Shown here one piece after another: positions 14,876 through 38,200 of a stretch of DNA of 64,000 nt; the first letter of the stretch is position 1, and the number at the start of each line of letters is the position of its first letter. The position numbers and the translations under genes are program-made. The DNA is from an uncultured Bacilli bacterium (GTDB lineage Bacteria > Bacillota_I > Bacilli_A > RFN20 > CAG-288): contig CALVXU010000015.1 in the NCBI GenBank assembly GCA_944371605.1, positions 9,686 through 73,685 on the forward strand. The letters run 5' to 3'. A model generated the notes under the pieces. The model was not told the DNA's origin. It made no database searches and worked only from the letters and a program-made list of their open reading frames with translations.

Positions 14876-14906
14876 TCATCATTATTTTAGCTTATCTATT
14901 GTACTT

Positions 14907-14946
14907 AAAAAGCCTGATCATCTTTTGAATGTATCAGGCTTTTTTA
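14907..14946 (+). terminator. Rho-independent terminator
   Basis: AGCCTGAT (14911-14918) pairs with ATCAGGCT (14933-14940) and is followed by TTTTT. Confidence 0.65.
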
Positions 14947-14972
14947 ATTGTTTTAAGATAAAGATTACTATC

Positions 14973-15012
14973 AATTCTTGAACTGATATCTTTTATCATC
15001 AGCTCAAGAATT
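14973..15012. terminator. 15-bp stem-loop between convergent genes (possible terminator)
   Basis: AATTCTTGAACTGAT (14973-14987) pairs with ATCAGCTCAAGAATT (14998-15012) at 14 of 15 positions. TT follows on the plus strand, and there is no T-run on the minus strand. Confidence 0.35.
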
Positions 15013-15038
15013 TTAGCATCATGCAATTAACAAATTCG

Positions 15039-15398: not shown

Positions 15399-15704
15399 AT
15401 TTTGACTAATTCTATAAACTGCTTTTTAGTCATATAAAACACAAAAAATAAGCAAAAATTGTTGATAAATAACTGTGCATTTATATTCGTTTTAATTCTT
15501 GCTTTTATAAATTCAAAATATAATTGTCTATCATAATAAATGTAAGCAAATATAGATTAGCAGGTGAATAGATTTGGCTTTTCAGCACCGTCAATTCATA
15601 AACAGCAATTAATTTGAGCTATATGTTCTCATCACAAATACGCGATATCATTCAATATCTAAAAACTGCATTTATCACCGCTATAAATATCTCAATCAAA
15701 AGAA

Positions 15705-17528: not shown

Positions 17529-17546
17529 CGTTCAATCCCTCCCCCT

Positions 17547-20663: not shown

Positions 20664-20665
20664 TT

Positions 20666-22105: not shown

Positions 22106-22106
22106 A

Positions 22107-24156: not shown

Positions 24157-24727
24157 CTTGAGACTCCTCTTTCATATCTGATGAACTATTAGGTAAATCA
24201 TCACTTTCTTCAAACATCGCTAAAAGTTGATCATCGCTTTCATTGACCCCGTATATCTTATCATCTGGAGTATAAGACGCATTGACTTCATTAAAGACAT
24301 CATCAGCACTAGTCATAATCTCTTCACTCTTCACTTTAGTCTGCAATGCGCCATTCAAAAATTTAGCAAGGTTCTTTTGATCTGATAATAAATCCTGCAA
24401 AGATACATCTGAAGCAGCTTTAATAAAATCTTTATCGTCTAAAGCATCTTTAAGCTTTTTCAAAAGTTGTAAATTATAGAGCAAGTATAATGAACGTTGG
24501 ACTAAAGTTTGACGATCTTTTTTTAACGCTTCTATCTTCTTTGCATATAGAAGTCTAATATCACGATTCTTCTCTACTTTGCCTTTTTCTAATAGAGCTT
24601 GTTCTTCACGTGATTTTTGAATTATCTGCTCTTCAAGTGCTTGTTCACGATTATCTAATTCGATGATAGCATCAACAACTTCTTCACGTTTAAGCTTTTT
24701 AAATTTATTCTTCTTAAACGGCCACAT
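24143..24727 (-). CDS. ESCRT-III (Snf7)-like coiled-coil protein
   Basis: 194 aa with a basic N-terminus (MWPFKKNKFKKLKREE). It follows a Snf7-like pattern: ai.eL...e.LE....k.eee...L...G.....r....aKk.e.Lkk....l......l.n.q. The C-terminal tail is acidic (DDQLLAMFEESDDLPNSSSDMKEESQD). Its start overlaps the upstream stop in TGATG. Confidence 0.55.
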   Translation of the reverse strand: MWPFKKNKFKKLKREEVVDAIIELDNREQALEEQIIQKSREEQALLEKGKVEKNRDIRLLYAKKIEALKKDRQTLVQRSLYLLYNLQLLKKLKDALDDKDFIKAASDVSLQDLLSDQKNLAKFLNGALQTKVKSEEIMTSADDVFNEVNASYTPDDKIYGVNESDDQLLAMFEESDDLPNSSSDMKEESQDVNI

Positions 24728-25095
24728 CAGAATTTTTCCTCTTTAGTATCAATAGTAGTGACCAAGTTCTTTCTTTTCGTGATTGCTAATTTTAAATCAT
24801 TGATGCAGGAGATCAGCTTTTCACTAGCAAAATCAGTTTTTTTCAAGCACTTATTAACTTCAATCATCAAATCACCAATAGTGTTTTGGATATTTCTATC
24901 TGCCTTTTCACTATCAGCACGTGGGATGAGATATTTGATTTCCTCTCTCAAAGTTTTTAATTCCTTAGAAAGGTTGTCGTCTTTTCCTTCGACTAAATCA
25001 ACTAAAATATTCATCGAAGAAAGCATCTCAGAGATGCGATTCTTTGACTTAACCTCATCTTTATATGCAGAATTTTTATTTTTAAAAAAGAACAT
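24727..25095 (-). CDS. Small helical protein of unknown family (operon gene 2)
   Basis: An ORF of about 122 aa, predicted helical by composition. I moved the start to the ATG at 25095, 8 nt after GGAGG; the track start at 25110 contains the SD itself. Confidence 0.5.
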   Translation of the reverse strand: MFFFKNKNSAYKDEVKSKNRISEMLSSMNILVDLVEGKDDNLSKELKTLREEIKYLIPRADSEKADRNIQNTIGDLMIEVNKCLKKTDFASEKLISCINDLKLAITKRKNLVTTIDTKEEKF

Positions 25096-25119
25096 TTCCT
25101 TTTCCTCCAATCAATTCAA

Positions 25120-26235
25120 TCATCGAAGTTTTTGTCCACAATTAGGACAGAAGAGAGCATTTTCTGGAACACGAGCATGACAAGAAGGACACACACCATC
25201 TTCGATCAACTTAGTACCATCATTAGGACAGAACTTCATATTCCCACCAAATTTATTATGACAAGTGGGACAGACCATAGTGATAGAATGGGAACCAGAA
25301 ACAGGTTTAGCATTAGGAACTGATTTATTTCCATCTGTAGGCCATCCTAAAATTTTTAAAACATCATAATACTTATCAATATCTGAACTTTGTAAATCAT
25401 GTAAAATTTTCTCTCTTTCAAAGTTCTTATCATCTAATCTTTCTAATTCGGCGGCTATTTCCTTTGCATCTTTTTTCTCTTGCTCTTTATCTTTTAATTC
25501 TTTACGTCGTTTTTCGAGAGCTTGAATTTCAACCTCACTCGGAGAGATATTGCCGATAGTGAATGAGCAAACTTCTAAGCCATAATCATCACTGAACATC
25601 TGATTGATCTGTGTCTTAATATTTTCTGCGATATCTAATTTATATAAAGTTATTTCTTCAAAAGGAATATGTTTTTCCTTGAGCGTTTTATAAATATTAG
25701 GTTCAATGATAGATAAAAGTCTTTGCAATAAACGGATTTGTAAATCAGAGATTGTAAAATTCTTATCTGCTCCAACTAATTCTTGATAGAATTTTTGAGA
25801 ATTCTTTACACGTACTTCAAATTCACCAAATGCTCTCACATGAACCAAAATATCAGTAGCTTCATCGCGGAATGCGAAAGGCGTGCTAGTTCCCCATTTC
25901 ACAAGCAATCTAGCTGTTTTAGAAATAAAAACTAAATCAACTGAACAAGCACCTACTTTTCTAGCACTGAAAATTCCTTTTTTATAGTCAAATATCGGAT
26001 ATCTTCCGCCTTGTAAAACGTTCATCAGCATCCCGTCTTTCACAAACACCACTTCATGCGTTTGTGGAACAATAATTTCAGCTTCTGGATTTAAAACATC
26101 TGCTTGAAATCTCCAGAAAAGTGAATTGTTATCACCTTCAAATTTGATTTCTTTTAGATTTTTTAAATCCTTCTTATTCTTCTCATTGATCGAATCATCA
26201 TTGTTATTCAAATTAAACACACTTCTTTTTGCCAT
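25120..26235 (-). CDS. SPFH/Band-7-like protein with C-terminal double zinc ribbon (YdjI / COG4260-like)
   Basis: SLFWRFQADVLNPEAEIIVPQTHEVVFVKDGMLMNVLQGGRYPIF and LVFISKTARLLVKWGT fit the YdjI/virion-core-like SPFH family. The C-terminus CPTCHNKFGGNMKFCPNDG...CPSCHARVPENALFCPNCG holds two zinc ribbons. I moved the start to the ATG at 26235, 6 nt after GGGGGT. Confidence 0.7.
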   Translation of the reverse strand: MAKRSVFNLNNNDDSINEKNKKDLKNLKEIKFEGDNNSLFWRFQADVLNPEAEIIVPQTHEVVFVKDGMLMNVLQGGRYPIFDYKKGIFSARKVGACSVDLVFISKTARLLVKWGTSTPFAFRDEATDILVHVRAFGEFEVRVKNSQKFYQELVGADKNFTISDLQIRLLQRLLSIIEPNIYKTLKEKHIPFEEITLYKLDIAENIKTQINQMFSDDYGLEVCSFTIGNISPSEVEIQALEKRRKELKDKEQEKKDAKEIAAELERLDDKNFEREKILHDLQSSDIDKYYDVLKILGWPTDGNKSVPNAKPVSGSHSITMVCPTCHNKFGGNMKFCPNDGTKLIEDGVCPSCHARVPENALFCPNCGQKLR

Positions 26236-26520
26236 AGTGTACCCCCATACACACATATTTTATTTATTATATTAGAAAAAAAGTATACACACAATTAAAA
26301 ATATGTAACTTTAGTAGAATCCTAGTATAAAAATTCTCATTTTCAAATTTTACTAACTAAATGTTCCTAATGCTAAAATTAAATACTAAAAAACATAACC
26401 CATGTTGAATAAAATCTGAAAATTTGCATATATGATTGTGTGCCTACATATTACGTTTCGACATAGTAATCACTGTAATTATTTTTATCATGTAAAGTTT
26501 TAGAAGCTTACTGCTTAATT

Positions 26521-28218
26521 TTACAAAAGTTTGAGTACTGACAAAAAATCATCTAACTTAATAAAATTGACATCATGTTTGATTTTTTCTTTTAAGAAAC
26601 GACTTTCATCTTCATCTTTACAAATTAAAATATCAACATCTTTAGTTTCCAAAGCCAAAATATACCCTTGAGATTCAATTCTCTTACAAAGATCAATACA
26701 ATCTAAATCAGATTTTTGAACATCATTAGAAAAGGCGAATCTTTTACCTATAAATTTTGGATCGGATAATATTGTCTTATATTTTTCATCGCTCTTTCTT
26801 TCTCTTCTCAACTTGTCAAAAGGCTTTTCGATTACTCCTTTAAGCCTCGAAATATATTCCCTTAGTTTTCTTTCATCTGCGTTTAATTTTGTGACTTCAA
26901 TATCCCACTTGCTAGTAATTATGCATTCTAGACCAGCTTGCCTAATTAAATCCCCTAGCAACAACTTAGAATTAAAATGCTTCTCAATTAAATACTTTAA
27001 AGCAAGCATCGTAGCCATGGCATCATAAGAGGCTTCATGAAAATTGATATTTTTTGTTTCATCCTCAGGAAGATATTTTTTAACTATTGCTTCAAGTCCT
27101 CCACTCTCTTTTAATAACTGTTTAAAGAGAATATGAACATCTATAGCAAAAATATCCAATGGATTATTTCCATATCTCCTATAAGAATAATCAAGATAAT
27201 CAAAATCGTTTTTGACATCAAATCCAAAAATCAATATATCTTTTTGATTAAAAAGATAGTTAATATAATCGATATAATAATCAAACTCAGGGGCTTTTCT
27301 ATATATTTCGTAGTTATCTTTTTCGTACCTTAAATGAAGGTCTTTTTGATTTTTTCTACCAATGAGAGCAAAATTATAATTTCTCCCATTGCCAGGATTG
27401 ATTATGTATTCACCTCTCATTGGTCTCTGAAAATTTGATGTGACTATAGTCCAACCAAACTCACATATTTTACCTTCGTCGTTAAAACAGTTAGCACATT
27501 CCGTATCAAAAAAGATATATCGTTTTACATTATTCCAATTAGTATTATTAAAAATGTTCTCCTTTACTTGTTTTGACTTGAGCTTTACATATTCTTTTTT
27601 AAAGCTATTAGACGAAGTTGTATAGCACCATGATGAAAAGATATCCTTTGATAAGCATTCACTTAACGTAAATCTGTATTCATTACATATTTTTTCAAAA
27701 ACTTTAAAAGCTAATAAAGCATTAGTCTTTGAATAATGTTCTTTAATCTTAATAACATCATCATTTTTCGGAAAAAGATTATTTATTGCGTTACTTAAAG
27801 ATGGTATGACAAGTTTCTTCTTAGTAATTCTATAGAAAGTTTGTACATCAAAAGCTTTTATATTAATGTCGATTAACTCATATCTTTTACAATCAGATGA
27901 TATGTAAAATAAATCATTCTTAATATCCCAACCCATTACTTGGTTTTCAGGGTTAGTGAGCAACGACTTAATTTTTTCATAATAGTAGGGGAATTTATTT
28001 TGTTTCCTATAAAACTCATAATCATTTTCAAAGTGAGCAAGTTCAATTTTTCTTTCAACAACATCAGAAAAATCTTCATTTTCACCAGGATTGATGAAAA
28101 AATTGCCTTCTTCAATAATCTGAAAAGAATCATTAACAAGTACATAGCCAAATTGAGCAATTTTAGGTTGAATGTTATGTTTATTAGCCACTTCACAATC
28201 TATAAATAATAAATTCAT
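26521..28218 (-). CDS. Tandem DEDDh (DnaQ-like) 3'-5' exonuclease domains plus a C-terminal BRCT-like region
   Basis: Domain 1 has LLFIDCEVAN (ExoI), MGWDIKNDLFYI (ExoII) and EHYSKTNALLAF, where ExoIII has N in place of the usual D. Domain 2 has IFFDTECANC, FGFDVKNDFDYL and FHEASYDAMATMLAL, an intact H-x4-D. The tail is FIGKRFAFSNDVQKSDLDCIDLCKRIESQGYILALETKDVDILIC. Confidence 0.65.
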   Translation of the reverse strand: MNLLFIDCEVANKHNIQPKIAQFGYVLVNDSFQIIEEGNFFINPGENEDFSDVVERKIELAHFENDYEFYRKQNKFPYYYEKIKSLLTNPENQVMGWDIKNDLFYISSDCKRYELIDINIKAFDVQTFYRITKKKLVIPSLSNAINNLFPKNDDVIKIKEHYSKTNALLAFKVFEKICNEYRFTLSECLSKDIFSSWCYTTSSNSFKKEYVKLKSKQVKENIFNNTNWNNVKRYIFFDTECANCFNDEGKICEFGWTIVTSNFQRPMRGEYIINPGNGRNYNFALIGRKNQKDLHLRYEKDNYEIYRKAPEFDYYIDYINYLFNQKDILIFGFDVKNDFDYLDYSYRRYGNNPLDIFAIDVHILFKQLLKESGGLEAIVKKYLPEDETKNINFHEASYDAMATMLALKYLIEKHFNSKLLLGDLIRQAGLECIITSKWDIEVTKLNADERKLREYISRLKGVIEKPFDKLRRERKSDEKYKTILSDPKFIGKRFAFSNDVQKSDLDCIDLCKRIESQGYILALETKDVDILICKDEDESRFLKEKIKHDVNFIKLDDFLSVLKLL

Positions 28219-28221
28219 TAT

Positions 28222-28986
28222 TTAATTTCTATTTTCCTTATAATCTTTGTTCTTTTTTATAACAGCTTCTAGTAATTTAGGAGTTACACATTTTTCTTTT
28301 GCTTGCTTTACAATTGACGAAATATCTTTTGGAAGACAGCTTCCTCCATATCCTCTATTATTCTTATAGACAAAAGTATGACTTGAACCAATTCTAGGAT
28401 CTGCAATCCAAATTTCTCTAGCTTTGTTATATGAAACTCCTAGTTTTTGACAAATATCATACATCTCATTGCAAAAAATCACTTTAGTTGCTAAATATGC
28501 ATTTTCCATGTACTTAGCCATTTCGACAGTATCACTATCTCCTTGATATATTTTTACATTTGAATTAATAACACTTTGGTAAACTTCAATAGCCATATCA
28601 ATTGCATCTTGTTCGCCACCAAAAGATAGCCAAGAACGATCAGATAAATTGGCAAAAGGATGCGCAACAGTTTCACCATAATATTCAGGTTGAAAAACTA
28701 TCTTCTTATGGTATTTATTGACCATCTCTTTTGTAAAACCAACTTTAACAGTTGAACGTAAAATAAGCACTGGACATGAGCACATAGAAATTACTTCTTC
28801 AACTGCTGAAGTATCACAACTCCCATCCTCATTCATAGGCGTAGGAACACAAATAAAAGCAGCATCGCATTTATTAATTTCTTCCATACTTCCTATGTTT
28901 TTGAATTTATCATATAACACTGCTTCTTTAAAAAGATTACTCATTGCAGTTCCAACATGTCCCACTCCAACAATTCCAACTTTCAT
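28222..28986 (-). CDS. UDP-glucose/GDP-mannose dehydrogenase-family protein lacking the C-terminal UDP-binding domain
   Basis: MKVGIVGVGHVGTAM (Rossmann GxGxxG), FICVPTP and the catalytic Cys box GYGGSCLPKD. At only about 254 aa it is short. The start ATG at 28986 overlaps the TAA of the upstream giant gene in TAATG; the track start at 29001 contains the GGAGG. Confidence 0.7.
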   Translation of the reverse strand: MKVGIVGVGHVGTAMSNLFKEAVLYDKFKNIGSMEEINKCDAAFICVPTPMNEDGSCDTSAVEEVISMCSCPVLILRSTVKVGFTKEMVNKYHKKIVFQPEYYGETVAHPFANLSDRSWLSFGGEQDAIDMAIEVYQSVINSNVKIYQGDSDTVEMAKYMENAYLATKVIFCNEMYDICQKLGVSYNKAREIWIADPRIGSSHTFVYKNNRGYGGSCLPKDISSIVKQAKEKCVTPKLLEAVIKKNKDYKENRN

Positions 28987-31900
28987 TATTTTTTCCTCCA
29001 TTTAATTCCATGATATTTTTTTGTATACAAGTTAAGATATTTAGATAATAAATTGATAACTTCATCCACATTATTAGCTGAGTAAATACAATCTTCTAGT
29101 ATGGCTGGATATCTAATTCTGTCATCTAGTTTTCGACCTGCTAGTTTCTTTCCATATCCATCAACATTATTAAATGCAATTATCAATTTATACTTTTGCC
29201 AAGCCATAGCCATTTCAGATAAAGTGCCAGCACCACCACCAATAACAACTACAGCATTTGCATCAACTACTAGACCATTTCGTAATAAATCAAGCCCAGT
29301 TGGCACGACAACATCAGCGAAATTATTCGCTTCTTCAGTATTAGTTGATGGAATAATAGCTATCGTTGAACCTTTTCTATATTTTGGAGATGATCTAGCT
29401 CCTTTAAAGACTGCTTCCATTACTCCACCTAAGCCGCCAGTTTGAATGTTATATCCTAGTTCTGCCAATTTTTTACCTAGTTCAAAAGCGGTTTTGTATT
29501 TTGTTGAATTATCTAAAACTGATCCGTCTCCTATTACAGCAACAGTTGGATATTGGCTTAATATTTCAGCTCTACTTAATAACCATTTTTGCATTTTTTG
29601 TTGAAAATTATCTTTATAAATGCCTAGTTTATTTTTACTTTCATCAGGCAAATCAAATAGATAAATTTGTTCTTTTATAAAAGCTGGTGAATAAGCGTGT
29701 TCAATTATTGGAAGCATCATTGCATAATCAGTTCTAATATCTATATATTGGCTGTCTTTCATTAAATTATCTTGAATAAATTCACATAGATAGCGCCTAA
29801 AACATTTAGGACGGAGCCATATATTATCTCCATTCCTTTCCCAACTATTTTTAAATGAAACTAAATCATATTTTTTTAATGGCTTATCTAGTCTAAAGCA
29901 GTTACCAATAGTAACATCATTACCACTATCAAATTTTTCTTTAATAATACTCAAAGCATCGTTTCTAATGAGAGCATCATCACTATCAATGTTGATAATT
30001 ATACTTTTTGGATTAATGCAAATATGCTTATAAAAGAATTCAAAGTTTGCCAAAGAGCCAACTCTGGTCTCGTTTTTAATATAAATAATTTTATCTTTCC
30101 AAATAGGTGAATAAGTTGCTAGCATTCTAATATATTCACTTGATGAAATATTAGTTGAATTATCATCTATATATACAATTTGAAAATTACTAAAACTTTG
30201 CATTTCTAAAGAATCAAATAATCTTTTTAGTTTAATTGTTGGTGTATTTCTTCCCCTAATGAAAACAACTACTTCTTTTGTTGTTTGAGGTATCCATTGA
30301 TAAGACTCGCATAAGTTAACATTATCTAATTGAATTAATGGAACAAACCTATTTTCAACTTGTCTTCTAACTATACTTATAAAATTCTTAACTTTCTTAG
30401 TTTCATTTTCTGGATGTATGAAAAATAAATGATTTGAAATTAGTCTTAGTGATTCCACTTTATTTAAAGATTTATCTAAAGCACGATTCCAACTATCTTT
30501 TAGAACACCATCTATAAGTTCATTATCTAATGGTAACTTTGTGCTTAACCTCTTTAAATCAATAAATGACGATCTAACTTCAGTTCTATTTGAAAGTATA
30601 GGGCTTCCATTTCTGTTATGAGCTATGCTTAAGGATAAAGTTAAAGCATTATTCTTTTTCAGAATATTTAAAGCCTCAGATAGACTTTCCTTACCATCAT
30701 TAAAATAAATTATGTCAGAATCTGTTTGGAAAGCGTATCTTGTTTTGCAAGATTCAAAACCATTTAAGATTGCTAATAGATTTTGTCCGTTTACACTATG
30801 TGCATCAATTGATTTTAATGAAAAATACTTTTTATAAAGTAAATAATCTTTAGGCAAATCTAATGATACAACTCTATCAATATAGCCATCATCTTTAAGA
30901 CGGCTAATTTCAGCTTTAAACTTTTCTATATTATCTTCATCATATCTACGTACTCTTTTCACATTTTCAATATCAATAGTCAAAATTCTTTCGGCAAATA
31001 CATCTTTTCTTTCTAATTGGGAAACAATATGCTTAACATTATCATAAATAGTATTAGCTTCCATTGAATTAGCTTTAACTATTAAAGTGCAATCAGTTAA
31101 AATATTTTTATTAGATTTATAACAATCAAAAATCAAATGTTCTCCGATAAAAGAGAGCGAAGATGTGTCTATTCCCTTATCTTCATATACCGCTTCAATA
31201 TTAAAGCCATATTTATTTAATAATCTTTCATAATAAGCTAGCGGTCGATGATATTCCTCTCTTTTTCCATAAATAGTAACTTTTTTATACAAAGAGCTTT
31301 TTTCATATTTACCATCATAATTTTTAATTGAAGTTACAGTATGATTTACATTATCAAAAAAAGGATTACAAATACTTAAAATAAATCTCCCATCATTTAA
31401 AACTAATTGATTAATTTTACTTAAAATAAAGTCATTGGTTTTATTATCAGTACAGCAAAGCACTTTATTGCAATTTACAAAATCAAAAATACGCTCTACA
31501 TTATTAATATCATCAATAACAGTAACTTTATTAGACGCTCTTTCATTTATTGTTTTTTTATCTATATCAAAAACATATGTGTTAAATTTATCAGCGATGG
31601 CATTAGCTATTCTACATTTTCCTGCACCATAATCTAAAACGCTGCTAGGATGATGACTATTTATTAAACTTAAAATGATTGGGTCATGAGTCTGTTCTTT
31701 TCTTTTATCATTTATTAAATCGTAAAATACATCTAGAGCATAATTAAATGCTTTATTTTCTTCTTGATAACTTTTAGAAATTAGAATTCTAAATTGATGT
31801 TTGTTGAGATTTGAAAACTTAATCATTTGATAGCAACGCTCAACACTCTTTTTATAATCTTTTTCGCTATAAGATACGATATCTCTTCCTAAATCTACAT

Positions 31901-34409
31901 AGATAAACTCATTATTAGATATTAATATATTTTCTTTTTTAAAGTTGTTTATCACTAATCCATGAAGCCTAAGTTCATTTAAAAAATGAGCTAATTCTTT
32001 AGCATATCCACCTTCATATTTTTTAAAATTAATAATCGTGTCATAAGAACAATACGCATAATCTAGTGCATCATTGAACCTTATATTCTTAGGAAGCTCA
32101 GTGATATCATTTAGTTTGCTAATTATTGATTTGAAAAAGTTCAAATTATCTTTTTTAAAAAACACTTTATATGTTCTATTAGTGGAACTATAAACGGCTC
32201 CTTCTAATCCATACCCAAGTAAAATAGGATTATCACAGCCACATTTATTACTAAGAAAGTTTTGTATCTTTTCTAATTCGTCTTTTTTCTCATCTAAAGC
32301 GATATATGATCTCAATTCCTCAAAACCAGTATTAACAAATGAAATATCACTTAGTTCTTTTATTTTTCTTATAAAATTATAAACAAGTTCATCATTTTCT
32401 AAGTGCTTAAAACCTTCTTCATTTAGTATTTCTAGTAAGCCAATAACTCTAAAGTAACTAATAGCAAATTTAATTGTTCTATTCTTTATTGATTTAATAA
32501 ATTCAGAATAAAAATTCGTTCTTGATAAAAAATCCTCTTTTGTAATAGCTGATATCATTGAATAACCTAAAATATCTAGGGCTTCTTTTTTAATTTCTTT
32601 ATCTAAATCAAAGTCATAAGTAAATCTATTTTGAAACAAACTAAAAGTTGAGCCTATTATTTTATATCCTTTTTTCTTAGCTAAAATTATCCAAAGACTA
32701 TCTCCACGTCTTGAAATACAATCATTAATCTTTATTGAAAAATTAGGAACAAGAAGTAAATTTCTATTTAAGAAAAGTGTATTTCCACCCCTTCTAATAG
32801 GTTTAAAATCGCTAATGGGACATTCAAATAACGGTCTACTAACTGCTTTGCCACCTAAAACATCTTTTAAAGAACAATTTTCAATTAATGGAAATGGAGT
32901 TTCGTTACATGTATTTCCTTCATTTGAAAATGAATAATAATAGTCTTTTTTGTAGTAAAGTTGTTCTTGCGATAGTTTGTTTTTACCAAGCTTTTTTGAA
33001 TAAACATAATCTAATAAAGTGTTTCTTATAGTAGATAAAGCAGGTATTGGTGCATCTCCTGAATAGCTTCCAACAACTGCATCAGCCTTATTAAAATAAC
33101 TAGAAACAAATCCTTTTATATCAGCTTTCTTAATCTTAAATTTACCATTTTCTCTATAAATAGAAGATAATTGCATATCTTCATCTAAAACATAAACAAT
33201 GTCGCCATTTTGAGTATTTTTATATGCAAAATATTGAAGAATACTTCTAGCAACAGATATCTCATTTACCATTCCTTTTTTAGGAAAATTATCAGAAACG
33301 AATTTATCAAAATAATTAGTTTCTACAAGCTTTTTTGCTTTTTTTAATGATAATATAGAAAATTCAATGCCTGTTTCACTTAAAATATTGTTTATTTCAT
33401 CTAAGTCAGAACCTCTTTCAAAATTAGCAAAGACAATTATCTTTTTACTTGGATAATCTGCTTCACAAATATCATTAATTAGTCTTTTTGCATAATTAAT
33501 ATCCGTTGTAATAAATGAAAAACATAATCTTGGAAAATAATCTAAATATGTATATTTAATATTACTATCTAATTCATTAAAACTTGTGTTTTTTTCTAAC
33601 AAATTTAAAAGCTCTGCTTCATTTGTTATACCTGACAAAAGTTTAACTCTGTTGAAAAATGCTCTCTTAACATCATCAATCATAAGAGAACCGTATTTAT
33701 AATAAAATTTAGCCAAAGATATCTTTTTGCTTTCTTTATTATTTGTTAACCTTTCTCTTGAGTTTGATGCATCAATTTCAACTAAATATTTATCTACTAC
33801 GCTTATGTTTGGGTTAAGCATTAATAGTCTAGTAAATAAATCACGATCAGTAGTTGAATCCATATTCTCATCAAAGCATCCAGCTTTCAGCAATATCGAA
33901 AATTTAACAAAAGTGTTAGAACCTTGAATATGTGGATTACCTTTTAGAAAAGAATAAATGCTCAATTCATGAGGGATAGTAAGCTGAAAACATTTCTCAT
34001 CAGTATGATAGTTTAAGCCACATACAACAATATCAGTTTTGTTAGTCTTTGAATTCCAACATTCTCTTAAATAGTCTTTATGCCAAATATCATCATCATC
34101 TAAAAATGCAATAAATAGATTATTTAGATTATATTGATTATCAAAAGCATATTTAGCAAAAACTTCTTCTATAGCCGAATTTAAATTACCAGCATAATTA
34201 TGAGAGTATTTATCTTTTAAAAAATGAAAACCAAATTTAGAGCAAAGAGTTCTTTCAATACTTTCATTCTCATTAGAAGAATCACTAGCGACAAAAACAT
34301 CTAATGGTTTTTTTGTTTGTAATGATATAGATTCTAATGCATTGTTTAAAAGCTCGACTCTGTTCTTAGTAGCAACAACAACAATAATCCCTTCTTTTTC
34401 GGTTAGCAT
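28986..34409 (-). CDS. 1807-aa multidomain protein: GT-A glycosyltransferases, kinase-like domain, class I methyltransferase, C-terminal LOG/TIGR00725-like domain
   Basis: The N-terminal GT2 has IIVVVATKNRVELLNNALESISLQT...FLDDDDIW. A second GT-A-like region has IVYVLDEDMQ. The kinase-like block is at about nt 31800-32260 (LLGYGLEGAVYSS, YKVFFKK, HGLVINNFKKENILI, YVDLGRD). The SAM methyltransferase motif I is VLDYGAGKCRIA (about nt 31613-31640). A further GT2 has VVVFIRGRN...IVYIDDNS...NIDSDDAL (about nt 29700-30275). The LOG-like domain has VAVIGDGS...TGGLGGVMEA...VVIGGGAGTLSEMAMAW (about nt 28989-29560). Confidence 0.7.
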   Translation of the reverse strand: MLTEKEGIIVVVATKNRVELLNNALESISLQTKKPLDVFVASDSSNENESIERTLCSKFGFHFLKDKYSHNYAGNLNSAIEEVFAKYAFDNQYNLNNLFIAFLDDDDIWHKDYLRECWNSKTNKTDIVVCGLNYHTDEKCFQLTIPHELSIYSFLKGNPHIQGSNTFVKFSILLKAGCFDENMDSTTDRDLFTRLLMLNPNISVVDKYLVEIDASNSRERLTNNKESKKISLAKFYYKYGSLMIDDVKRAFFNRVKLLSGITNEAELLNLLEKNTSFNELDSNIKYTYLDYFPRLCFSFITTDINYAKRLINDICEADYPSKKIIVFANFERGSDLDEINNILSETGIEFSILSLKKAKKLVETNYFDKFVSDNFPKKGMVNEISVARSILQYFAYKNTQNGDIVYVLDEDMQLSSIYRENGKFKIKKADIKGFVSSYFNKADAVVGSYSGDAPIPALSTIRNTLLDYVYSKKLGKNKLSQEQLYYKKDYYYSFSNEGNTCNETPFPLIENCSLKDVLGGKAVSRPLFECPISDFKPIRRGGNTLFLNRNLLLVPNFSIKINDCISRRGDSLWIILAKKKGYKIIGSTFSLFQNRFTYDFDLDKEIKKEALDILGYSMISAITKEDFLSRTNFYSEFIKSIKNRTIKFAISYFRVIGLLEILNEEGFKHLENDELVYNFIRKIKELSDISFVNTGFEELRSYIALDEKKDELEKIQNFLSNKCGCDNPILLGYGLEGAVYSSTNRTYKVFFKKDNLNFFKSIISKLNDITELPKNIRFNDALDYAYCSYDTIINFKKYEGGYAKELAHFLNELRLHGLVINNFKKENILISNNEFIYVDLGRDIVSYSEKDYKKSVERCYQMIKFSNLNKHQFRILISKSYQEENKAFNYALDVFYDLINDKRKEQTHDPIILSLINSHHPSSVLDYGAGKCRIANAIADKFNTYVFDIDKKTINERASNKVTVIDDINNVERIFDFVNCNKVLCCTDNKTNDFILSKINQLVLNDGRFILSICNPFFDNVNHTVTSIKNYDGKYEKSSLYKKVTIYGKREEYHRPLAYYERLLNKYGFNIEAVYEDKGIDTSSLSFIGEHLIFDCYKSNKNILTDCTLIVKANSMEANTIYDNVKHIVSQLERKDVFAERILTIDIENVKRVRRYDEDNIEKFKAEISRLKDDGYIDRVVSLDLPKDYLLYKKYFSLKSIDAHSVNGQNLLAILNGFESCKTRYAFQTDSDIIYFNDGKESLSEALNILKKNNALTLSLSIAHNRNGSPILSNRTEVRSSFIDLKRLSTKLPLDNELIDGVLKDSWNRALDKSLNKVESLRLISNHLFFIHPENETKKVKNFISIVRRQVENRFVPLIQLDNVNLCESYQWIPQTTKEVVVFIRGRNTPTIKLKRLFDSLEMQSFSNFQIVYIDDNSTNISSSEYIRMLATYSPIWKDKIIYIKNETRVGSLANFEFFYKHICINPKSIIINIDSDDALIRNDALSIIKEKFDSGNDVTIGNCFRLDKPLKKYDLVSFKNSWERNGDNIWLRPKCFRRYLCEFIQDNLMKDSQYIDIRTDYAMMLPIIEHAYSPAFIKEQIYLFDLPDESKNKLGIYKDNFQQKMQKWLLSRAEILSQYPTVAVIGDGSVLDNSTKYKTAFELGKKLAELGYNIQTGGLGGVMEAVFKGARSSPKYRKGSTIAIIPSTNTEEANNFADVVVPTGLDLLRNGLVVDANAVVVIGGGAGTLSEMAMAWQKYKLIIAFNNVDGYGKKLAGRKLDDRIRYPAILEDCIYSANNVDEVINLLSKYLNLYTKKYHGIKWRKK

Positions 34410-34563
34410 AATAAAACCTCTAGCTTGATAAGTGTAGAATAATAATGTACTTATTCACCTCTACTTAAAAATAGAGCAAAATAACACGCCGTTTTGCCCT
34501 AAATAAAAATCATAATTTTGTCCTAATCATTATCACAAAGTAACAAAATTCCACCTACTAAGC

Positions 34564-34716
34564 TTACAAAACTTTAAAACCAACACTAAGAGTTTTCTCA
34601 CCTTTATAAGCTTTATACACGCTTACTGTCATCGGAATACACCAACATAATGGAATAAGTAACCATCCCATTCCAATAGTACATAACAAGCATAAAATAA
34701 ATGCTGCTAATTTCAT
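34564..34716 (-). CDS. 50-aa small membrane protein (unannotated, below the track threshold)
   Basis: ATG at 34716 lies 7 nt after GGGAGAG. It translates to MKLAAFILCLLCTIGMGWLLIPLCWCIPMTVSVYKAYKGEKTLSVGFKVL. It sits directly downstream of the G8-containing promoter and upstream of the giant gene on the same strand. Confidence 0.5.
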   Translation of the reverse strand: MKLAAFILCLLCTIGMGWLLIPLCWCIPMTVSVYKAYKGEKTLSVGFKVL

Positions 34717-34751
34717 TGTTTCAACTCTCCCTATAAATAAAATTCGTTTTT

Positions 34752-34778
34752 ATTTTACCCCCCCCTAGGAAAAGTCAA
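34752..34778 (-). promoter_or_regulatory. Sigma-70-type promoter with a G8 homopolymer in the spacer
   Basis: The minus strand reads TTGACT (34778-34773), tttcctaGGGGGGGG as a 15-nt spacer, then TAAAAT (34757-34752). The ATG at 34716 lies 35 nt downstream of the -10. Confidence 0.5.
34758..34765 (-). repeat. G8 (C8 on the plus strand) homopolymer in an intergenic promoter spacer
   Basis: Direct reading gives attttaCCCCCCCCtagga at 34758-34765. Confidence 0.9.
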
Positions 34779-35083
34779 GAGTTTTCGATGATCATAGCAC
34801 TATTTCGTCATCATCTTATAGTCAAGTTTATATCTAGTAAACGTTGCATAGCCAATAATAGTAGCTGCTATATCGTTTATTCTTTTTAAGCTATAATTCT
34901 GTTTTGATAGTTGAATACTAATAAATATTCTAATAATAAAAGCAATAAAAAATTCGTATTTATTAGAGACGTTCAAAAACACTTATATCATTTAAATAAC
35001 ATCAATAATTAGATAAGTCTACTCTTTCATCTTTAGGCAGATACAAGACGTAATCTTACAAAGTGCCAATTTATCATATAAAT

Positions 35084-35114
35084 AAAAAGTCTGAGCACTA
35101 TTTGAGTGTCAGAC
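35084..35114 (-). terminator. Rho-independent terminator after rpoC and tRNA-Gly
   Basis: The minus strand reads GTCTGACAC-tcaaata-GTGCTCAGAC (9 bp with one bulge) followed by TTTTTATTTAT. Confidence 0.6.
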
Positions 35115-35129
35115 ATGTTTTTGTAAACA

Positions 35130-35200
35130 AGCAGCCAACGGGAATCGAACCCGCATATACAGCTTGGGAAGCTATCGTTCTACCACTGAACTATGGCTGC
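35130..35200 (-). tRNA. tRNA-Gly (CCC anticodon)
   Basis: The reverse complement GCAGCCATAGTTCAGTGGTAGAACGATAGCTTCCCAAGCTGTATATGCGGGTTCGATTCCCGTTGGCTGCT folds as a cloverleaf. Acceptor is GCAGCCA/TGGCTGC, D stem GTTC/GAAC, anticodon stem ATAGC/GCTGT, loop TTCCCAA, T stem GCGGG/CCCGT with loop TTCGATT. The discriminator U is typical of bacterial Gly. No CCA is encoded. Confidence 0.8.
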
Positions 35201-35238
35201 AAGAAGGGCTATAGCCTAATGGCTATAACCCATATGTT

Positions 35239-38200
35239 TTACTTAAAGAGCTGATTGACGTCTTTTTCTTCCTCTGGCTCATCAAAACCGGGAAGAGGAA
35301 CGATACCAGTACCAGCCGGAATAAGCTTACCGATCATAACGTTTTCTTTCAAGCCCTTGAGATAATCAACCTTTCCTTTGATAGCAGCGTCGGTGAGAAC
35401 ACGAGTGGTCTCCTGGAAGGAAGCAGAGCTTAAGAAACTCTCAGTATCTAAAGCAGCTTTAGTGATGCCCATGACGATCGGACGTCCGACAGCAGGATTA
35501 CCAGCGTGAGCTAAGATCTTTCTATTCTTCTCAGTGAATTCGATCAAAGAAACCTTTTGGCCAGGAAGCATATCAGTATTGCCAGAGTTGATGATCAATA
35601 AGCGATTAGTCATCTGTTTGACGATGATCTCAAGATGCTTATCAGCGATTGAGATACCGTTAGAAGAATACACAGCCTCAACTTCTTTGATCAAATAGTT
35701 TCTGACAGTAGCTAAGTCTGTGCAATCTAACAAGTCTTTCGGGTTGATATGGCCCTTAGTTAAGGCTTGACCAGCACGAACTTCTTGGCCTTCAGTGACA
35801 GCAGGAACGGAGTTCGGATAAGAAGTAAAAGTCTTTTCTTCTAATTCATTAGTGATGACAAAGACATGTCTTAATCCTTGTTCAGTTATCTTGCTGACGA
35901 CACCTCTAATAGTGGTGATCAAAGCTAAGTCTTTTGCCTTAGGATTTCTGACTTCCAAAAGCTCTTGGACACGTGGTAAACCGGTAGTGATATCTTTCTG
36001 ACCAGCAACACCACCAGTGTGGAAGTTCTTCAAAGTGAGCTGAGTACCAGGTTCACCGATAGATTGAGCAGCCATGATACCGACAGTATCACCGATAGTA
36101 GCGAGCTTGCCAGTAGCCAAATTACGGCCGTAGCAATGGACACAAACACCATCAGTAGATTCACAGGTGAGAACCGAACGAATCTCAACTTCAGTGATGC
36201 CAGCTTTGATGATCTTGCTAGCGATATCTTCATCGATGAGTTTGTTGCCTTCGATGATGACTTCACCAGTCTGCGGATCGATGACATCTCTCATGGAGAA
36301 ACGTCCGACTAAACGATCATACAAGGATGCGATGAGCTCATTATTGTCATCGCGTAATTCCTTAACGATGATTCCTCTATCACAATGGCAATCTTCTTCA
36401 CGGATGACCATGTTGTGAGAAACATCGACTAATCTTCTAGTCAAATAGCCAGAATCAGCAGTCTTCAAAGCAGTATCTGAACCATTCTTTCTCGTACCAT
36501 GAGTAGAAGTGAAGTATTCCGAGACAGAAAGACCATCAGCATAGCAAGAAGTGACAGGAACTTCGATAGCTCTACCAGTAGAGTCAAGCATACATCCTTT
36601 CATACCGATGAGCTGCATATAGTTATCTTTCGAGCCTCTAGCACCTGATTCCATCATCATAAACATCGGGTTTCTAGGAGCGGATTTCATACGTGAAGCT
36701 AAGAGATCGGCAATAGGTCCATCTTTTAACTTGTTCCAATAGTCGATAACGGCATTATGTCTTTCTTCTTCAGTATAGAAACCTAATTCGAAGTCATTAG
36801 AAATTTGAGCAATTCTTTGACGGCCTTGCTCGTAGAGCTTGTTTCGGCCATCCAAAGGTTTCATATCATCTAATGAGATAGTCAAACCAGATTTAGTACA
36901 GTAGTCGAATCCTTGGTTCTTGAAGAGATCCATGATATGAGCGGTTTCGACAGCTCCGTACTTACGGAAGACGAAATCCATCATGGTTTGGATGCCCTTC
37001 TTATCGATAGGTGAACGCAAAGGTCTAGTATGAGCATATTCTTTCATCGGATCGAAATCATCACCTTCGTGGAATTTACCAGAAGCGATGCAAGCATCAT
37101 AAGCTTGCTTGACAGTGACAAAGAAAGAATCTGGAGTTTTGACAAAATTATCTGAATATTCTTTCTTAGCGTTTTTATCGCCGATGATAGAGAAATTGAT
37201 ATATGGGAAATCTGAAGGGAAGATAGAGTTGAAAATCAACTTACCGACAGTCGTGAACAGATACGCTTTCTCTTGTTCAGGAGTTAAGCATGTCTTGCCT
37301 AAAGATCTTCCAGGAACATAAATTCTGGTTCTCAAAGACAATAATCCATTTTGATAAGCGAGGATAGCAGTGTTAGGATCAGAAAACACTTTTCCTTCAT
37401 ATTTCTTATAGCTGCGGAATTTCTCAGCCATCTCAAAATCATTGCGCTTTTCATAATAGGTGGCATACATCTCATCGATGCTCCAGTTGTCCTCAAGAGT
37501 CAAGTAATAGTTACCGAAGATCATATCTTGTGAAGGAACACAGATCGGTTTACCATCAGAAGGCTTCAAGATGTTACGATTAGCTAACATCAAAGACATG
37601 GCTTCAGCCTGCGCCTGACGAGAAAGCGGCACGTGAACAGCCATCTGGTCACCATCAAAGTCCGCATTAAAACCAGGGCAAACTAATGGGTGTAAGCGGA
37701 TAGCTTTACCATCGATAAGAATCGGACGGAAAGCTTGAATACCTAAGCGGTGCAAAGTAGGAGCACGGTTTAACAAAACCGGATGATTTTTGGCGATGAC
37801 ATCGATAGCATCATAAACACGAGGATCTTCTCTAGCGATGAGTTCATCGGCTTGGCGTTGAGAAGTGACACCCGAGTCTTTATCGGTGAGCAAATAATGA
37901 GCGATGAAAGGACGGAAGAGTTGAACAGCCATCTCACGAGGCAAACCGCACTCATCCATATTGAGCTCAGGGCCGACAGCGATGACAGAACGACCAGAAT
38001 AGTCGACTCTCTTACCTAAAAGGTTTTGATGGAAACGACCTTGTTTACCTTTTAATGTAGAAGATAAAGATTTAAGAACGTTACCAGAAGAAGAAGCAGA
38101 AGGCTTATTACGACGATCATTATCAATCAATGCATCGACAGCTTCTTGAAGCATACGTTTTTCATTGATCATGATGACGTTAGGAGCATGCTCCTCTTGT

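Follow-up and report, generated by a model that had tools for sequence, protein, structure and literature searches.

The analysed window, a 64,000-nucleotide stretch of contig CALVXU010000015.1 from an uncultured Bacilli bacterium, carried a giant gene whose modules and neighbours are listed in Table 1. The reading frame was intact, in agreement with the single polypeptide described in the earlier note, and all motifs quoted there were present in the translation in the same order. Profile matches, AlphaFold2 (AF2) models, and Foldseek likewise supported the domain types listed in that note, although the GT-A domains, given as at least three, numbered four. The protein therefore comprises four GT-A modules, a class I SAM methyltransferase, a kinase-like module, and a C-terminal LOG/Moco-carrier-like SLOG domain. 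No transmembrane segment was found in the giant protein, and its maximum Kyte-Doolittle 19-mer (1.5) came from the part of the SLOG domain that surrounds the conserved IGGGAGT motif. The homologues of the giant protein numbered 221, with the full architecture shared by ~50 of 120 clusters among the matches listed; active-site residues were invariant in 27 diverse homologues and conserved in all 120 among the matches listed. The wider family was modular around the kinase-like domain (K), with arrangements including D1-D2-K-MT, K-MT-D5-D6, K-D5-D6, and D1-K-D2.

Table 1. Features of the giant gene and its surroundings (window positions; residues numbered along the giant protein unless a length is given).
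Feature	Position	Strand	Residues	Motifs or remarks	Basis
tRNA-Gly(CCC)	35130..35200	(-)		between rpoC and cassette	ARAGORN + Rfam
Giant gene, D1 to D7	28986..34409	(-)	1807 aa	ATG start	single uninterrupted ORF
D1, GT2 glycosyltransferase	33630..34388	(-)	~8-260	VVVATKNR 9-16; FLDDDD 102-107 (DDDD 104-107)	PF00535
D2, divergent GT-A-fold module	32610..33542	(-)	~290-600	VLDEDM 407-412 (D409-E-D411)	AF2 + Foldseek
Helical linker	32235..32609	(-)	~601-725	five helices	DSSP of AF2 model
D3, protein-kinase-like module	31740..32228	(-)	~728-890	LGYGLEGAVY 731-740 (G-loop GYGLEG); YKVFFK 747-752 (K748); HGLVINNFKKENILI 816-830 (N822-F-K824-K-E-N827); YVDLG 837-841 (D839-L-G841)	profile + Foldseek
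D4, class I SAM methyltransferase	31125..31712	(-)	~900-1095	VLDYGAGKC 924-932 (motif I LDYGAGKC)	profiles
D5, divergent GT-A-fold module	30255..31118	(-)	1098-1385	QTDSD 1228-1232 (D1230-S-D1232)	AF2 + Foldseek
D6, GT2 glycosyltransferase	29610..30254	(-)	~1386-1600	VFIRGRN 1381-1387; YIDDNS 1413-1418; DSDD 1475-1478	PF00535
D7, SLOG cluster4 / TIGR00725-type	29040..29552	(-)	~1620-1790	TGGLGGVMEA 1657-1666 (GGLGGVMEA); TGLDLLR; IGGGAGTLSEM 1723-1733 (IGGGAGTLSE)	PF18306
UgdS, truncated NDP-sugar 6-dehydrogenase-like partner	28222..28986	(-)	254 aa from coupled ATG		PF00984, PF03721
Accessory gene	26521..28218	(-)	565 aa	two DEDDh-exonuclease-like halves	PADLOC DEDDh E 1.3e-11, Pfam DEDDh_C
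TIR_2 domain protein	17547..20669			8.3 kb downstream of giant gene

Two of the GT-A modules were GT2 domains by Pfam, with PF00535 matching D1 at aa 10-147 (E 1.1e-13, 51.9 bits against a cut-off of 23.3) and D6 at aa ~1394-1530 (E 5.9e-11, 43 bits). The other two, containing VLDEDM (D2) and QTDSD (D5), were assigned a GT-A fold from Foldseek matches of AF2 models (E about 1e-7 to 1e-6), giving four in all. D2 had no match in Pfam; its model (pLDDT 93.9) matched MtdL (7xpt, E 1.4e-7), a Chlorella hyaluronan synthase, and TarP/TarS. D5 had no match in Pfam or PDB sequence searches, and its model (pLDDT 96.1) matched TarP (6h4f, E 1.6e-6), COLGALT1, LH3, and mimivirus R699. A DxD motif was kept in each of the four modules, and the residues D104-D107 (D1), D409 and D411 (D2), D1230 and D1232 (D5), and D1475, D1477, and D1478 (D6) were invariant in the 27 diverse homologues, as were D926, G928, G930, and D948 of the methyltransferase D4. 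The D4 match to Methyltransf_23 (E 5.9e-6, 26.5 bits) fell under the cut-off of 27, and a family profile searched against the PDB matched 3g5l at E 3.5e-9. The linker helices, at AF2-model residues 318-438 by DSSP, are predicted to be compact rather than an extended coiled coil because the pTM was 0.91.

The family profile of the kinase-like module matched TTK kinase (E 1.2e-6) and placed N822 at the position of the HxD Asp, and Foldseek matched PAK1, ROCK2, and ASK1. In an alignment of 141 kinase-like domains (the query and 140 representatives of the family), the ATP and Mg ligands were kept (Lys in 140, Mg-Asn in 140, and DFG-Asp in 141) while the catalytic-Asp position was mostly Asn (123, with Asp in 16), bearing out the substitution noticed earlier. 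The catalytic base was also absent in the query and in all 120 homologues among the matches listed; ordinary phosphorylation of a hydroxyl is therefore unlikely, and the earlier suggestion of a possibly phosphorylated glycan was not upheld. The canonical D-x-K-x-x-N catalytic loop occurred in a minority of the wider family, which points to a probable descent of its kinase-like domains from true glycan-pathway kinases.

The SLOG domain D7 matched PF18306 at E 1.9e-30 (105.9 bits against a cut-off of 26.3) and scored 93.8 bits with TIGR00725, under the cut-off of 106.9. Its PDB matches were 6y01 (E 2e-17), the Moco carrier protein 2iz5, and 1rcu, followed by LOG enzymes. Domain searches supported the LOG as well as the kinase-like assignment. 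Full-length homologues with a fused SLOG (about 1770-1818 aa, 36-77% identity) came from many samples and phyla. In unfused loci, a separate gene for a 187-192-aa SLOG protein either immediately followed the core gene or was separated from it by one other gene (p637). Over half of the family had the SLOG as a free-standing protein of about 190 aa, like the TIGR00725 enzymes, and it was fused or just downstream in nearly every locus with that stretch readable. By this co-occurrence, the SLOG is an obligate part of the glycosyltransferase cassette.

The partner UgdS overlapped the giant gene in a stop/start TAATG with GGAGG upstream, and the two are predicted from this arrangement to be translationally coupled (the mechanical ORF of UgdS begins at 29001). 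Its catalytic-Cys motif GYGGSCLPKD aligned with Ugd and the C-terminal PF03720 domain was not found in it; UgdS may not make UDP-GlcA since the UDP-binding domain is absent. It was present in 26 of 37 loci, with 60-72% identity between most loci of different phyla compared to 37-46% for the giant protein, while Bacteroidales loci had an SDR epimerase/dehydratase in its place, sometimes as an N-terminal fusion. The constant partners of the giant gene are thus one NAD-dependent sugar oxidoreductase and the SLOG, whether as a fused domain or as its own gene. Many cassettes additionally held genes for a radical SAM enzyme or a PHP phosphoesterase, or a DEDDh exonuclease-like gene that directly followed UgdS in L001, L006, L009, and L045/46. 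Type A cassettes consisted of two genes only.

Cassette hosts included Bacilli/Anaeroplasmataceae, Clostridia, Bacteroidales, Wolinella, Treponema, Pasteurella, and Peribacteria. Judged from gene content and this scattering across phyla, the giant gene is the core of a self-contained and horizontally mobile cassette that passes among widely differing gut bacteria. The flanks were variable and often held mobile-element or defense genes; the 122 nearest flanking ORFs of 22 loci contained 123 unrelated Pfam families, with polysaccharide genes almost absent. In the window, GC content was about 40% in rpoBC and dropped to 26% over the giant gene, and the tRNA-Gly(CCC) may be the boundary of an inserted island. 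Neither an att repeat nor an integrase was found.

The best-supported reading was that of the earlier note, an assembly-line enzyme for a methylated glycan, for which the GT-A modules and methyltransferase were confirmed. We tentatively propose that the giant protein is a soluble all-in-one enzyme assembling a methylated glycan that probably contains uronic acid and either belongs to the cell surface or decorates a surface glycan. A methyltransferase, a kinase, and two GT2 domains occur in one polypeptide in K. pneumoniae O7 ORF6, with WbbB and WbdA/WbdD as further examples (PMC11231755, PMC3482155). The giant protein resembles these proteins and its logic is akin to that of multi-module polymerase/terminator proteins in ABC-transporter-dependent O-antigen assembly; it is not a member of the group, as the active kinase and transporter are absent. 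WbdD was not among the top sequence-profile or Foldseek matches. The predicted folds of D2 and D5 were like those of TarP/TarS, cytoplasmic wall-teichoic-acid glycosyltransferases. The homologue P0080 was encoded within a Wzx/Wzy polysaccharide locus, where a full-length Ugd, together with GLF and LicD, took the place of UgdS; this was counted in favor of a glycan product. Counted against it were the lack of a membrane segment and of export and priming genes, with no transporter, flippase, initiating phosphoglycosyltransferase, or ligase belonging to the cassette, and the nucleotide- or nucleic-acid-flavored recurrent accessories (radical SAM, PHP, and DEDDh). The very different host envelopes are also awkward for an enzyme docking onto a host-specific polymer and exporter, and we know of no envelope-glycan pathway that requires a LOG/Moco-carrier-type SLOG protein.

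A rather unlikely alternative is that the product of the cassette is a glycoconjugate linked to a nucleobase, a nucleotide, or a nucleic acid and serves in phage defense or mobile-element competition. The SLOG, either as an NMP N-glycosidase of the LOG type or as a nucleotide binder, would supply or hold the acceptor, and the product would be elaborated by the GT modules and the methyltransferase along with UgdS and the radical SAM enzyme. The model is that of hexopyranosyl-nucleoside antibiotics such as blasticidin and mildiomycin (base release, a glycosyltransferase with uronic acid, then a radical SAM step), or alternatively phage-type DNA hypermodification. Such a role suits the SLOG as the most constant partner, a portable cassette that needs no exporter and often neighbors defense or mobile-element genes, and the DEDDh exonuclease-like gene in at least five loci. 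The radical SAM accessory showed MoaA/viperin-like N-terminal similarity and the PHP accessory resembled 3',5'-bisphosphate nucleotidase (pAp phosphatase)/RNase AM, but both links are sub-threshold, family-level similarities. Distant relatives on a conjugative plasmid adjoined GTP cyclohydrolase II, an asparagine-synthase-like gene, and an N-acetyltransferase, and others a radical SAM gene between IS elements. The UgdS family occurred in 35 IMG/VR viral contigs and in cassettes elsewhere with thymidylate-synthase-family and dCMP-deaminase-like genes, glycosyltransferases, and a GT2-APH fusion. However, giant-type cassettes lacked a thymidylate-synthase-like gene or DNA-binding domain, no PADLOC model matched the giant protein, UgdS, or SLOG, no giant homologue was found in 50,697 GenBank phage records, and the P0080 locus clearly lay in a polysaccharide cluster. 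To our knowledge, nucleoside and DNA-base pathways all use fewer than four GT modules.

Cytoplasmic protein glycosylation is improbable. In this reading, the protein on which a short methylated oligosaccharide is built would be the enzyme, a conserved protein of the host, or one from a phage or mobile element. Precedents are the glycosylation of serine-rich-repeat adhesins and mycobacteriophage virions, and a soluble enzyme with several GT modules and no exporter would fit, as would a weak match of D1 to the SRRP-pathway glycosyltransferase 5hea, one giant copy in a prophage-like IMG/VR contig, and the short Ugd-like genes that adjoin glycosyltransferases in actinophages. Set against this, the cassette contained no conserved candidate acceptor protein, accessory-secretion genes were absent nearby, and the SLOG and kinase-like modules would be left unexplained.

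That the SLOG senses or processes a nucleotide signal of the TIR protein, tying glycan synthesis to a Thoeris-like pathway as the earlier note speculated, is very improbable. ThsA SLOG domains can bind cADPR isomers, and besides the TIR_2 protein in the same window, an unrelated SEFIR/TIR_2 gene lay about 6 kb from the cassette in L045/L046, only one of about 50 loci. In contrast, ThsA combines its SLOG with a SIR2 effector, whereas the domain here is of the PF18306 type with Moco-carrier-like nearest structures, fused to a glycosyltransferase and free-standing in much of the family. It co-varied with the glycosyltransferase core and not with any TIR gene: homologues of the TIR, BrxL-like, AAA, and SPFH proteins of the window were not found near the giant gene by tblastn in 44 other loci (840 kb), nor in L045, L047, and L048. 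Finally, a misassembly or read-through of separate genes, conceivable because the SLOG is a separate gene in many homologues, is refuted by recurrence of the fusion in ~50 of 120 listed clusters (independent homologues of 1772-1818 aa, down to 36% identity), a core of about 1615 aa that was one ORF in every intact locus, and an AF2 model confident across domain boundaries.

In the proposed glycan assembly line, a modified sugar would come from the oxidoreductase, with a uronic acid or one of its derivatives as the likeliest candidate. At the cytoplasmic face, sugars would be added successively by the four GT modules, and D4 would methylate the product. The kinase-like module would bind a nucleotide but not carry out the usual phosphotransfer to a hydroxyl; its role may be to retain the end of the chain, to control the enzyme, or to activate an acidic group. 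The SLOG would be a nucleotide-binding or nucleotide-processing subunit. In the weakest step of the scheme, the product would be a cell-surface glycan or its decoration. The host would provide both the primer on which it is made and the functions for its export, and the cassette would therefore be a plug-in that alters the surface.

The giant gene of the window (28986..34409, minus strand) was one unbroken ORF with an ATG start encoding 1807 amino acids, and every motif that an earlier note had quoted from the sequence was found in its translation in the order given there. The gene was AT-rich, with a G+C content of 26% compared to ~40% in rpoB/rpoC immediately upstream. Its product comprised seven modules (D1 to D7, the last being the SLOG domain) and a helical linker, as listed in the table with two neighboring genes. 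Transmembrane-like hydrophobicity was reached by no 19-residue window of the protein, the highest value (1.5) coming from a SLOG-domain stretch that surrounds the conserved IGGGAGT motif.

Modules of the giant protein (residues) and neighboring genes (window coordinates)
Feature	Position	Strand	Assignment	Evidence or context
D1	aa ~8-260		GT2	Pfam PF00535 at aa 10-147, 51.9 bits (cut-off 23.3)
D2	aa ~290-600		GT-A fold	AF2 model of aa 285-900 (pLDDT 93.9, pTM 0.91) and Foldseek
Linker	aa ~601-725		Helical	AF2 model
D3	aa ~728-890		Protein-kinase-like	Profile of 23 homologues to human TTK, E 1.2e-6; Foldseek
D4	aa ~900-1095		Class I SAM methyltransferase	Family profile to PDB 3g5l, E 3.5e-9
D5	aa 1098-1385		GT-A fold	AF2 pLDDT 96.1 and Foldseek
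D6	aa ~1386-1600		GT2	Pfam PF00535, 43 bits (cut-off 23.3)
D7	aa ~1620-1790		SLOG cluster 4	PF18306, 105.9 bits (cut-off 26.3)
Exonuclease-like gene	26521..28218	-	Product of 565 aa: two DEDDh-exonuclease-like halves, then a C-terminal region without a family assignment	
tRNA-Gly(CCC)	35130..35200	-		Directly after rpoC; separated from the giant gene by 34410..35129

The D2 and D5 modules matched no Pfam glycosyltransferase model, nor did the D5 profile match PDB sequences, and both were assigned from AF2 models that matched GT-A structures with Foldseek E values of 1e-7 to 1e-6. The D5 matches included TarP (6h4f, E 1.6e-6), COLGALT1, LH3, and mimivirus R699, while D2 matched MtdL best (E 1.4e-7), followed by Chlorella hyaluronan synthase, TarP, and TarS. 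Since MtdL is a GDP-sugar mutase with a GT-A fold, D2 may conceivably have a non-transferase role instead of the predicted sugar transfer. The DxD aspartates were invariant in all four GT-A modules among diverse homologues (n = 27), and a Foldseek search of the viral library gave generic GT2 and kinase matches only. The methyltransferase D4 carried motif I LDYGAGKC, with D926, G928, G930, and the acid at the end of beta2 (D948) invariant as in class I SAM enzymes; the domain of the window protein alone scored 26.5 bits, just below the Pfam cut-off of 27, and precomputed Pfam methyltransferase-family matches were on record for many homologues.

The C-terminal D7 conserved the GGxxGxM and (P/G)GGxGTxxE motifs of SLOG cluster 4 in the family consensus and scored 93.8 bits against TIGR00725, under the equivalog cut-off of 106.9. 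Its nearest solved structures were 6y01 and 2iz5 (the Chlamydomonas Moco carrier protein) and 1rcu (Thermotoga); LOG phosphoribohydrolases were further off, with weaker sequence similarity (E 2.5e-7 to 1e-6). The motif Glu and an upstream Arg were conserved in D7. D7 had the Rossmannoid SLOG fold of the TIGR00725/Moco-carrier branch together with its conserved Arg and its two motifs, GGxxGxMEA and GGGxGTxxE, and differed from it by being fused to, or in an operon with, a giant glycosyltransferase. This branch has no known function beyond Moco binding in Chlamydomonas.

The kinase-like module D3 was supported by the TTK profile alignment, which placed N822-x-K824-x-x-N827 opposite the kinase D-x-K-x-x-N loop and D839-L-G841 opposite DFG, and by Foldseek matches of its C-terminal part to the protein kinases PAK1, ROCK2, and ASK1. 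Conservation of G732/G734/E736/G737, K748, N827, and D839-x-G841 was as expected for an ePK fold with an ATP/Mg site, and N822 at the catalytic Asp position of the HxD/DxKxxN loop set the module apart from active kinases. Among 141 aligned domains (140 family representatives plus the query), this position was Asn in 123 and Asp in 16, the latter always as D-x-K-x-x-N; the beta3 Lys and the Mg-binding Asn were each present in 140 and the DFG Asp in all. The +2 residue of the Asn forms was often His, otherwise Lys or another residue. The Asn is a selected trait of a predicted nucleotide-binding module and not decay. The pseudokinases HER3 and JAK JH2 bind ATP and have Asn in place of the HRD Asp, and D3 resembled them in the Asp-to-Asn change at the catalytic base with retention of the beta3 Lys, Mg-binding Asn, and DFG Asp. 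Unlike them, D3 is bacterial, has a minimal kinase fold spanning ~160 residues, and lies within a glycosyltransferase; its glycine loop (GxGxEG) carries an invariant Glu, and its +2 residue is often His. A search of the D3 profile against 1.84 billion representative proteins returned only 406 matches (E<=1e-3), nearly all within large multi-glycosyltransferase proteins. As these had varied architectures, including D1-D2-Hx-K-MT-D5-D6, D1-D2-Hx-K-MT, K-MT-D5-D6, D1-K-D2, and K-D5-D6 (K, kinase-like module; MT, methyltransferase; Hx, helical linker), the kinase-like module is the hub of a shuffled family.

The giant protein had 221 homologues. Among the 120 clusters listed for architecture, ~50 had the full arrangement including SLOG (1770-1818 aa) down to 36% identity, and most of the remaining homologues were ~1610-1620 aa and ended before the SLOG domain. 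A few carried an additional N-terminal NDP-sugar epimerase/dehydratase (~1950 aa) or radical SAM domain (1891 aa). In unfused cases, a 187-192-aa SLOG gene lay just downstream of the core, directly or after one gene encoding p637, a 637-aa accessory protein. The fusion is therefore real and not an artifact, and the family is modular. No giant homologue was found in GenBank phages, and the plasmid search gave two distant, rearranged relatives only: one carried by a conjugative plasmid of Pseudoalteromonas, beside genes for GTP cyclohydrolase II, an asparagine-synthase-like protein, and an N-acetyltransferase, and one in Salinivibrio between IS elements with a radical SAM gene, both keeping the Asn at the catalytic position. 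In searches of the literature on TIGR00725, SLOG cluster 4, and glycosyltransferase-based defense systems, no description of the family was found, and source databases named its members only "TIGR00725 family protein" or "glycosyltransferase."

Comparison of 37 loci from species-representative genomes, with metagenome contigs in addition, revealed the same small gene set in unrelated neighborhoods, with the SLOG and one NAD-dependent sugar oxidoreductase as constant partners of the giant gene. In 26 of the 37 loci, the oxidoreductase was a short Ugd-like dehydrogenase (UgdS, ~252-254 aa), whose ATG in the window overlapped the giant-gene stop codon (TAATG) with GGAGG eight bases upstream. UgdS contained the NAD-binding (PF03721, partial) and central (PF00984) domains and the catalytic Cys motif GYGGSCLPKD, and it differed from the three-domain UDP-glucose/GDP-mannose dehydrogenases in having no C-terminal NDP-sugar-binding domain; against TIGR03026 it scored 152.5 bits (cut-off 189.8), spanning model positions 51-298 of 413. 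Compared to Ugd, it thus retained the NAD-binding and central dimerization domains and the GGSC(L/F)PKD motif and lacked the UDP-sugar-binding domain and ~30 residues of the N-terminal domain (~254 vs. ~390-450 aa). Between most loci of different phyla, identity was 60-72% for UgdS vs. only 37-46% for the giant protein. UgdS was replaced by a GalE/RmlB-like SDR gene in the Bacteroidales loci and by a full-length Ugd in one locus (L048).

Accessory genes included an upstream radical SAM gene (12 loci), p637 and p246 (637 and 246 aa, without an assigned family), a PHP phosphoesterase resembling 3',5'-bisphosphate nucleotidase/RNase AM (six loci), and a polysaccharide deacetylase (one locus). A DEDDh-exonuclease-like gene directly followed UgdS in the window and in L001, L006, L009, and L045/46, these at least four other loci encoding shorter relatives of the 565-aa window protein; since its relatives trail the Ugd-like gene elsewhere, the exonuclease-like gene is probably a cassette member. 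The 565-aa protein had no PDB or NCBIfam match, and p637 had none in a PDB sequence search. PADLOC 2.0 matched neither the giant protein, UgdS, SLOG, p637, nor p246, and gave only generic matches of the exonuclease-like gene to DEDDh and of the N-terminal radical SAM core to pVip.

UgdS belonged to a large family in its own right that occurs across several different mobile glycosyltransferase cassettes. Two kinds of cassette had UgdS without a giant gene, both beside TerY-P-like triads or integrases. The first was a metagenomic operon (L052..L054; gene at 10001-10759 of L052) coding for an ADP-ribosylglycohydrolase, short Ugd, GT1, GT2-APH-like fusion, Citrate_ly_lig-type nucleotidyltransferase, dCMP-deaminase-like protein, thymidylate-synthase-family protein, and a further GT1, adjoining a VWA/PP2C/kinase (TerY-P-like) triad; its gene content recalls DNA-base hypermodification or nucleoside-antibiotic pathways. 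The second comprised a P-loop kinase, nucleotidyltransferase, GLF, radical SAM gene, and GT1. Viral sequences also carried short Ugd-like genes (248-300 aa), namely 35 IMG/VR contigs, where SDR genes were often the neighbors, and Microbacterium phages, where a glycosyltransferase lay next to them. These short proteins (L049-L054, L062-L096, and L097) kept the catalytic Cys and lacked the UDP-binding domain.

The giant gene was distributed among uncultured Bacilli/Anaeroplasmataceae, Clostridia/Christensenellales, Bacteroidales, Wolinella, Treponema, Mucispirillum, Fusobacteriaceae, Gastranaerophilales, Peribacteria, and one Pasteurella multocida assembly. The contigs binned as "Escherichia coli" (L025) and "Phocaeicola dorei" (L006) are probably misbinned, and a megablast search of 5,426 complete E. 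coli genomes with the L025 cassette gave no match. The flank census covered the 122 nearest ORFs of 22 loci and gave 123 Pfam families, among which no polysaccharide-export or priming gene recurred; flanks of later loci were described by precomputed Pfam labels. Several cassettes lay amid mobile-element or defense genes, including TIR, BrxL-like ATPase, AAA, and SPFH genes (the window), an integrase and recombinase (L040), GmrSD, SLFN/AlbA, methyltransferase, SEFIR/TIR, and helicases (L045), a PLD-helicase-DUF3427 gene (L047), RhuM and Fic (L055), and a prophage-type DNA methylase (a giant-bearing IMG/VR contig). Unlike these, L048 held its giant-SLOG gene inside a Wzx/Wzy polysaccharide cluster with the full-length Ugd, GLF, and LicD. 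A gene of ~430-450 aa recurred beside cassettes in varying position and orientation, being AAA_14 plus DUF4143 by precomputed Pfam in L039, L049/L051, and L056 and assumed to be the same gene in L001, L003, and L019 from its size, position, and blastp cluster (c8). Its recurrence may point to an insertion hot spot common to these loci or to a mobilizing function. The cassette is autonomous and mobile.

In the window, accessory and defense-like genes filled the stretch from the tRNA-Gly down to ~14000, which for that reason looks like an island inserted beside the tRNA. No att-like duplicate of the tRNA end was present among the direct repeats of window 1..36000, no integrase was found in 1..17600, and Rfam (E<=1 over 26000..36000) identified the tRNA-Gly alone, with no riboswitch in front of the giant gene. 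A 50-codon ORF between the tRNA and the giant gene (34562..34714, minus strand) encoded a very hydrophobic, Cys-rich peptide (MKLAAFILCLLCTIGMGWLLIPLCWCIPMTV...), and none of the small ORFs preceding the giant gene, this one included, was conserved across loci. Further genes on the minus strand were one for a 378-aa SPFH/Band-7 protein ending in a double zinc ribbon (25120..26256), between the exonuclease-like and AAA/BrxL-like genes, and a defense-like run (17547..23576). The run encoded a 1040-aa TIR_2 protein containing ARM-like repeats, a Lon-type ATPase similar to BrxL (479 aa; PF13337, E 2e-105; other BREX genes absent), and a 489-aa AAA ATPase. None of the three genes of this run recurred near the giant gene in other loci, and the run is possibly a separate, undescribed defense module. 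Paralogues at 4374..5867 and 6591..8015 (minus strand) shared 165-nt and 44-nt direct repeats (77% and 70% identity, 2163-nt spacing); this paralogy and weak camelysin (Peptidase_M73)-like N-termini of the products of 6591..8015 and 8075..8683 (minus strand) suggest from sequence that the 4374..8683 genes encode tandemly duplicated secreted proteins.

Among known proteins, the nearest kind is the multi-module polymerase/terminator that serves O-antigen synthesis of the ABC-transporter-dependent type. Examples are ORF6 of K. pneumoniae O7, which joins a methyltransferase-kinase terminator to two GT2 modules and a coiled coil; WbbB of O12; and WbdA with WbdD in E. coli O9a and K. pneumoniae O3 (PMC11231755; PMC3482155). 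Like them, the giant protein unites multiple glycosyltransferase modules with a SAM methyltransferase and a kinase fold in one soluble cytoplasmic polypeptide or complex, has adjacent kinase-like and methyltransferase modules and a helical segment between catalytic blocks, and shows module shuffling among relatives as described for the Klebsiella systems. Unlike them, it has Asn for the catalytic Asp, making a methyl-phosphate cap unlikely, places the kinase-like module before the methyltransferase with glycosyltransferases on both sides, and has a helical region modeled by AF2 as a compact bundle and not as a coiled-coil ruler. The cassette furthermore has no Wzm/Wzt transporter or other O-antigen genes, with no transporter recurring in its flanks, contains a SLOG and a truncated Ugd that have no counterpart there, and is also present in Gram-positive, Mollicutes-like, and CPR genomes. 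A specific WbdD relationship was rejected, as WbdD was not among the top sequence or fold matches. Without a kinase base, a modeled ruler-like coiled coil, a transporter, or a top match to WbdD, the giant protein is not a member of this group. TarP and TarS, likewise GT-A enzymes, are similar in having a cytoplasmic site of action and a polymer substrate that the host exports later, and in being borne on mobile elements (TarP is prophage-encoded) without their own transporter. TarP/TarS gave the top Foldseek match for D5 and strong matches for D2, with TM-scores of only ~0.45 and ~11% identity, and they differ as single-module enzymes of ~320-570 aa with a trimerization or tandem-repeat domain and no methyltransferase, kinase-like, or SLOG parts.

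The giant protein has four GT-A sites, all of them intact, together with a SAM site and an ATP-type site that lacks the base; its partners are an obligate SLOG and a coupled sugar oxidoreductase. As a mechanism, the enzyme would assemble a short methylated glycan, probably with uronic acid, at the cytoplasmic face. We tentatively favor, short of calling it probable, a plug-in surface-glycan module using the primer and export functions of its host, which is consistent with the L048 copy in a polysaccharide cluster, folds like those of TarP/TarS, and the prior that generally attaches to gene sets of GT2, methyltransferase, Ugd, and SDR. However, the cassette has no export gene at all, spreads over very different envelopes, and includes SLOG, exonuclease-like, PHP, and radical SAM partners that a surface glycan leaves unaccounted for. 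The main rival, rather unlikely in our estimate, is a glycosylation system directed at nucleotides, nucleobases, or nucleic acids and acting in conflicts. It is likewise improbable that the giant protein, the obligate LOG-type SLOG, and the truncated Ugd constitute a new class of mobile "conflict" system, which would take a nucleobase, nucleotide, or nucleic acid in place of a lipid carrier as the platform for its glycoconjugate, use the base-less kinase-like module for a non-kinase ATP-dependent step, and serve in phage defense or mobile-element competition. A Thoeris ThsA-type sensor is disfavored by linkage of the SLOG to the glycosyltransferase core in nearly every readable locus and by the lack of a PADLOC match. 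The earlier suggestion that the SLOG responds to or processes a nucleotide signal from the TIR protein of the window found no support, with no homologue of that TIR protein found in 44 other loci or in three giant loci screened afterwards. Flagellin glycosylation was rejected from the presence of the cassette in non-flagellated lineages and a toxin-type glycosyltransferase from the lack of any translocation or secretion feature.

Three features merit study: a conserved kinase-like family that keeps the whole ATP site with Asp systematically replaced by Asn, often with His at +2; truncated Ugd-like dehydrogenases without the UDP-binding domain, widespread in mobile cassettes and viral contigs; and a TIGR00725/Moco-carrier-type SLOG locked to a glycosyltransferase. 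Should the plug-in surface-glycan reading hold, the cassette would offer a compact horizontal swap of surface chemistry and phage receptors among distant gut phyla, and its natural four-transferase fusion would also be of interest for glycoengineering. If the nucleotide-centered reading is correct, the cassette would represent novel immune or conflict chemistry.
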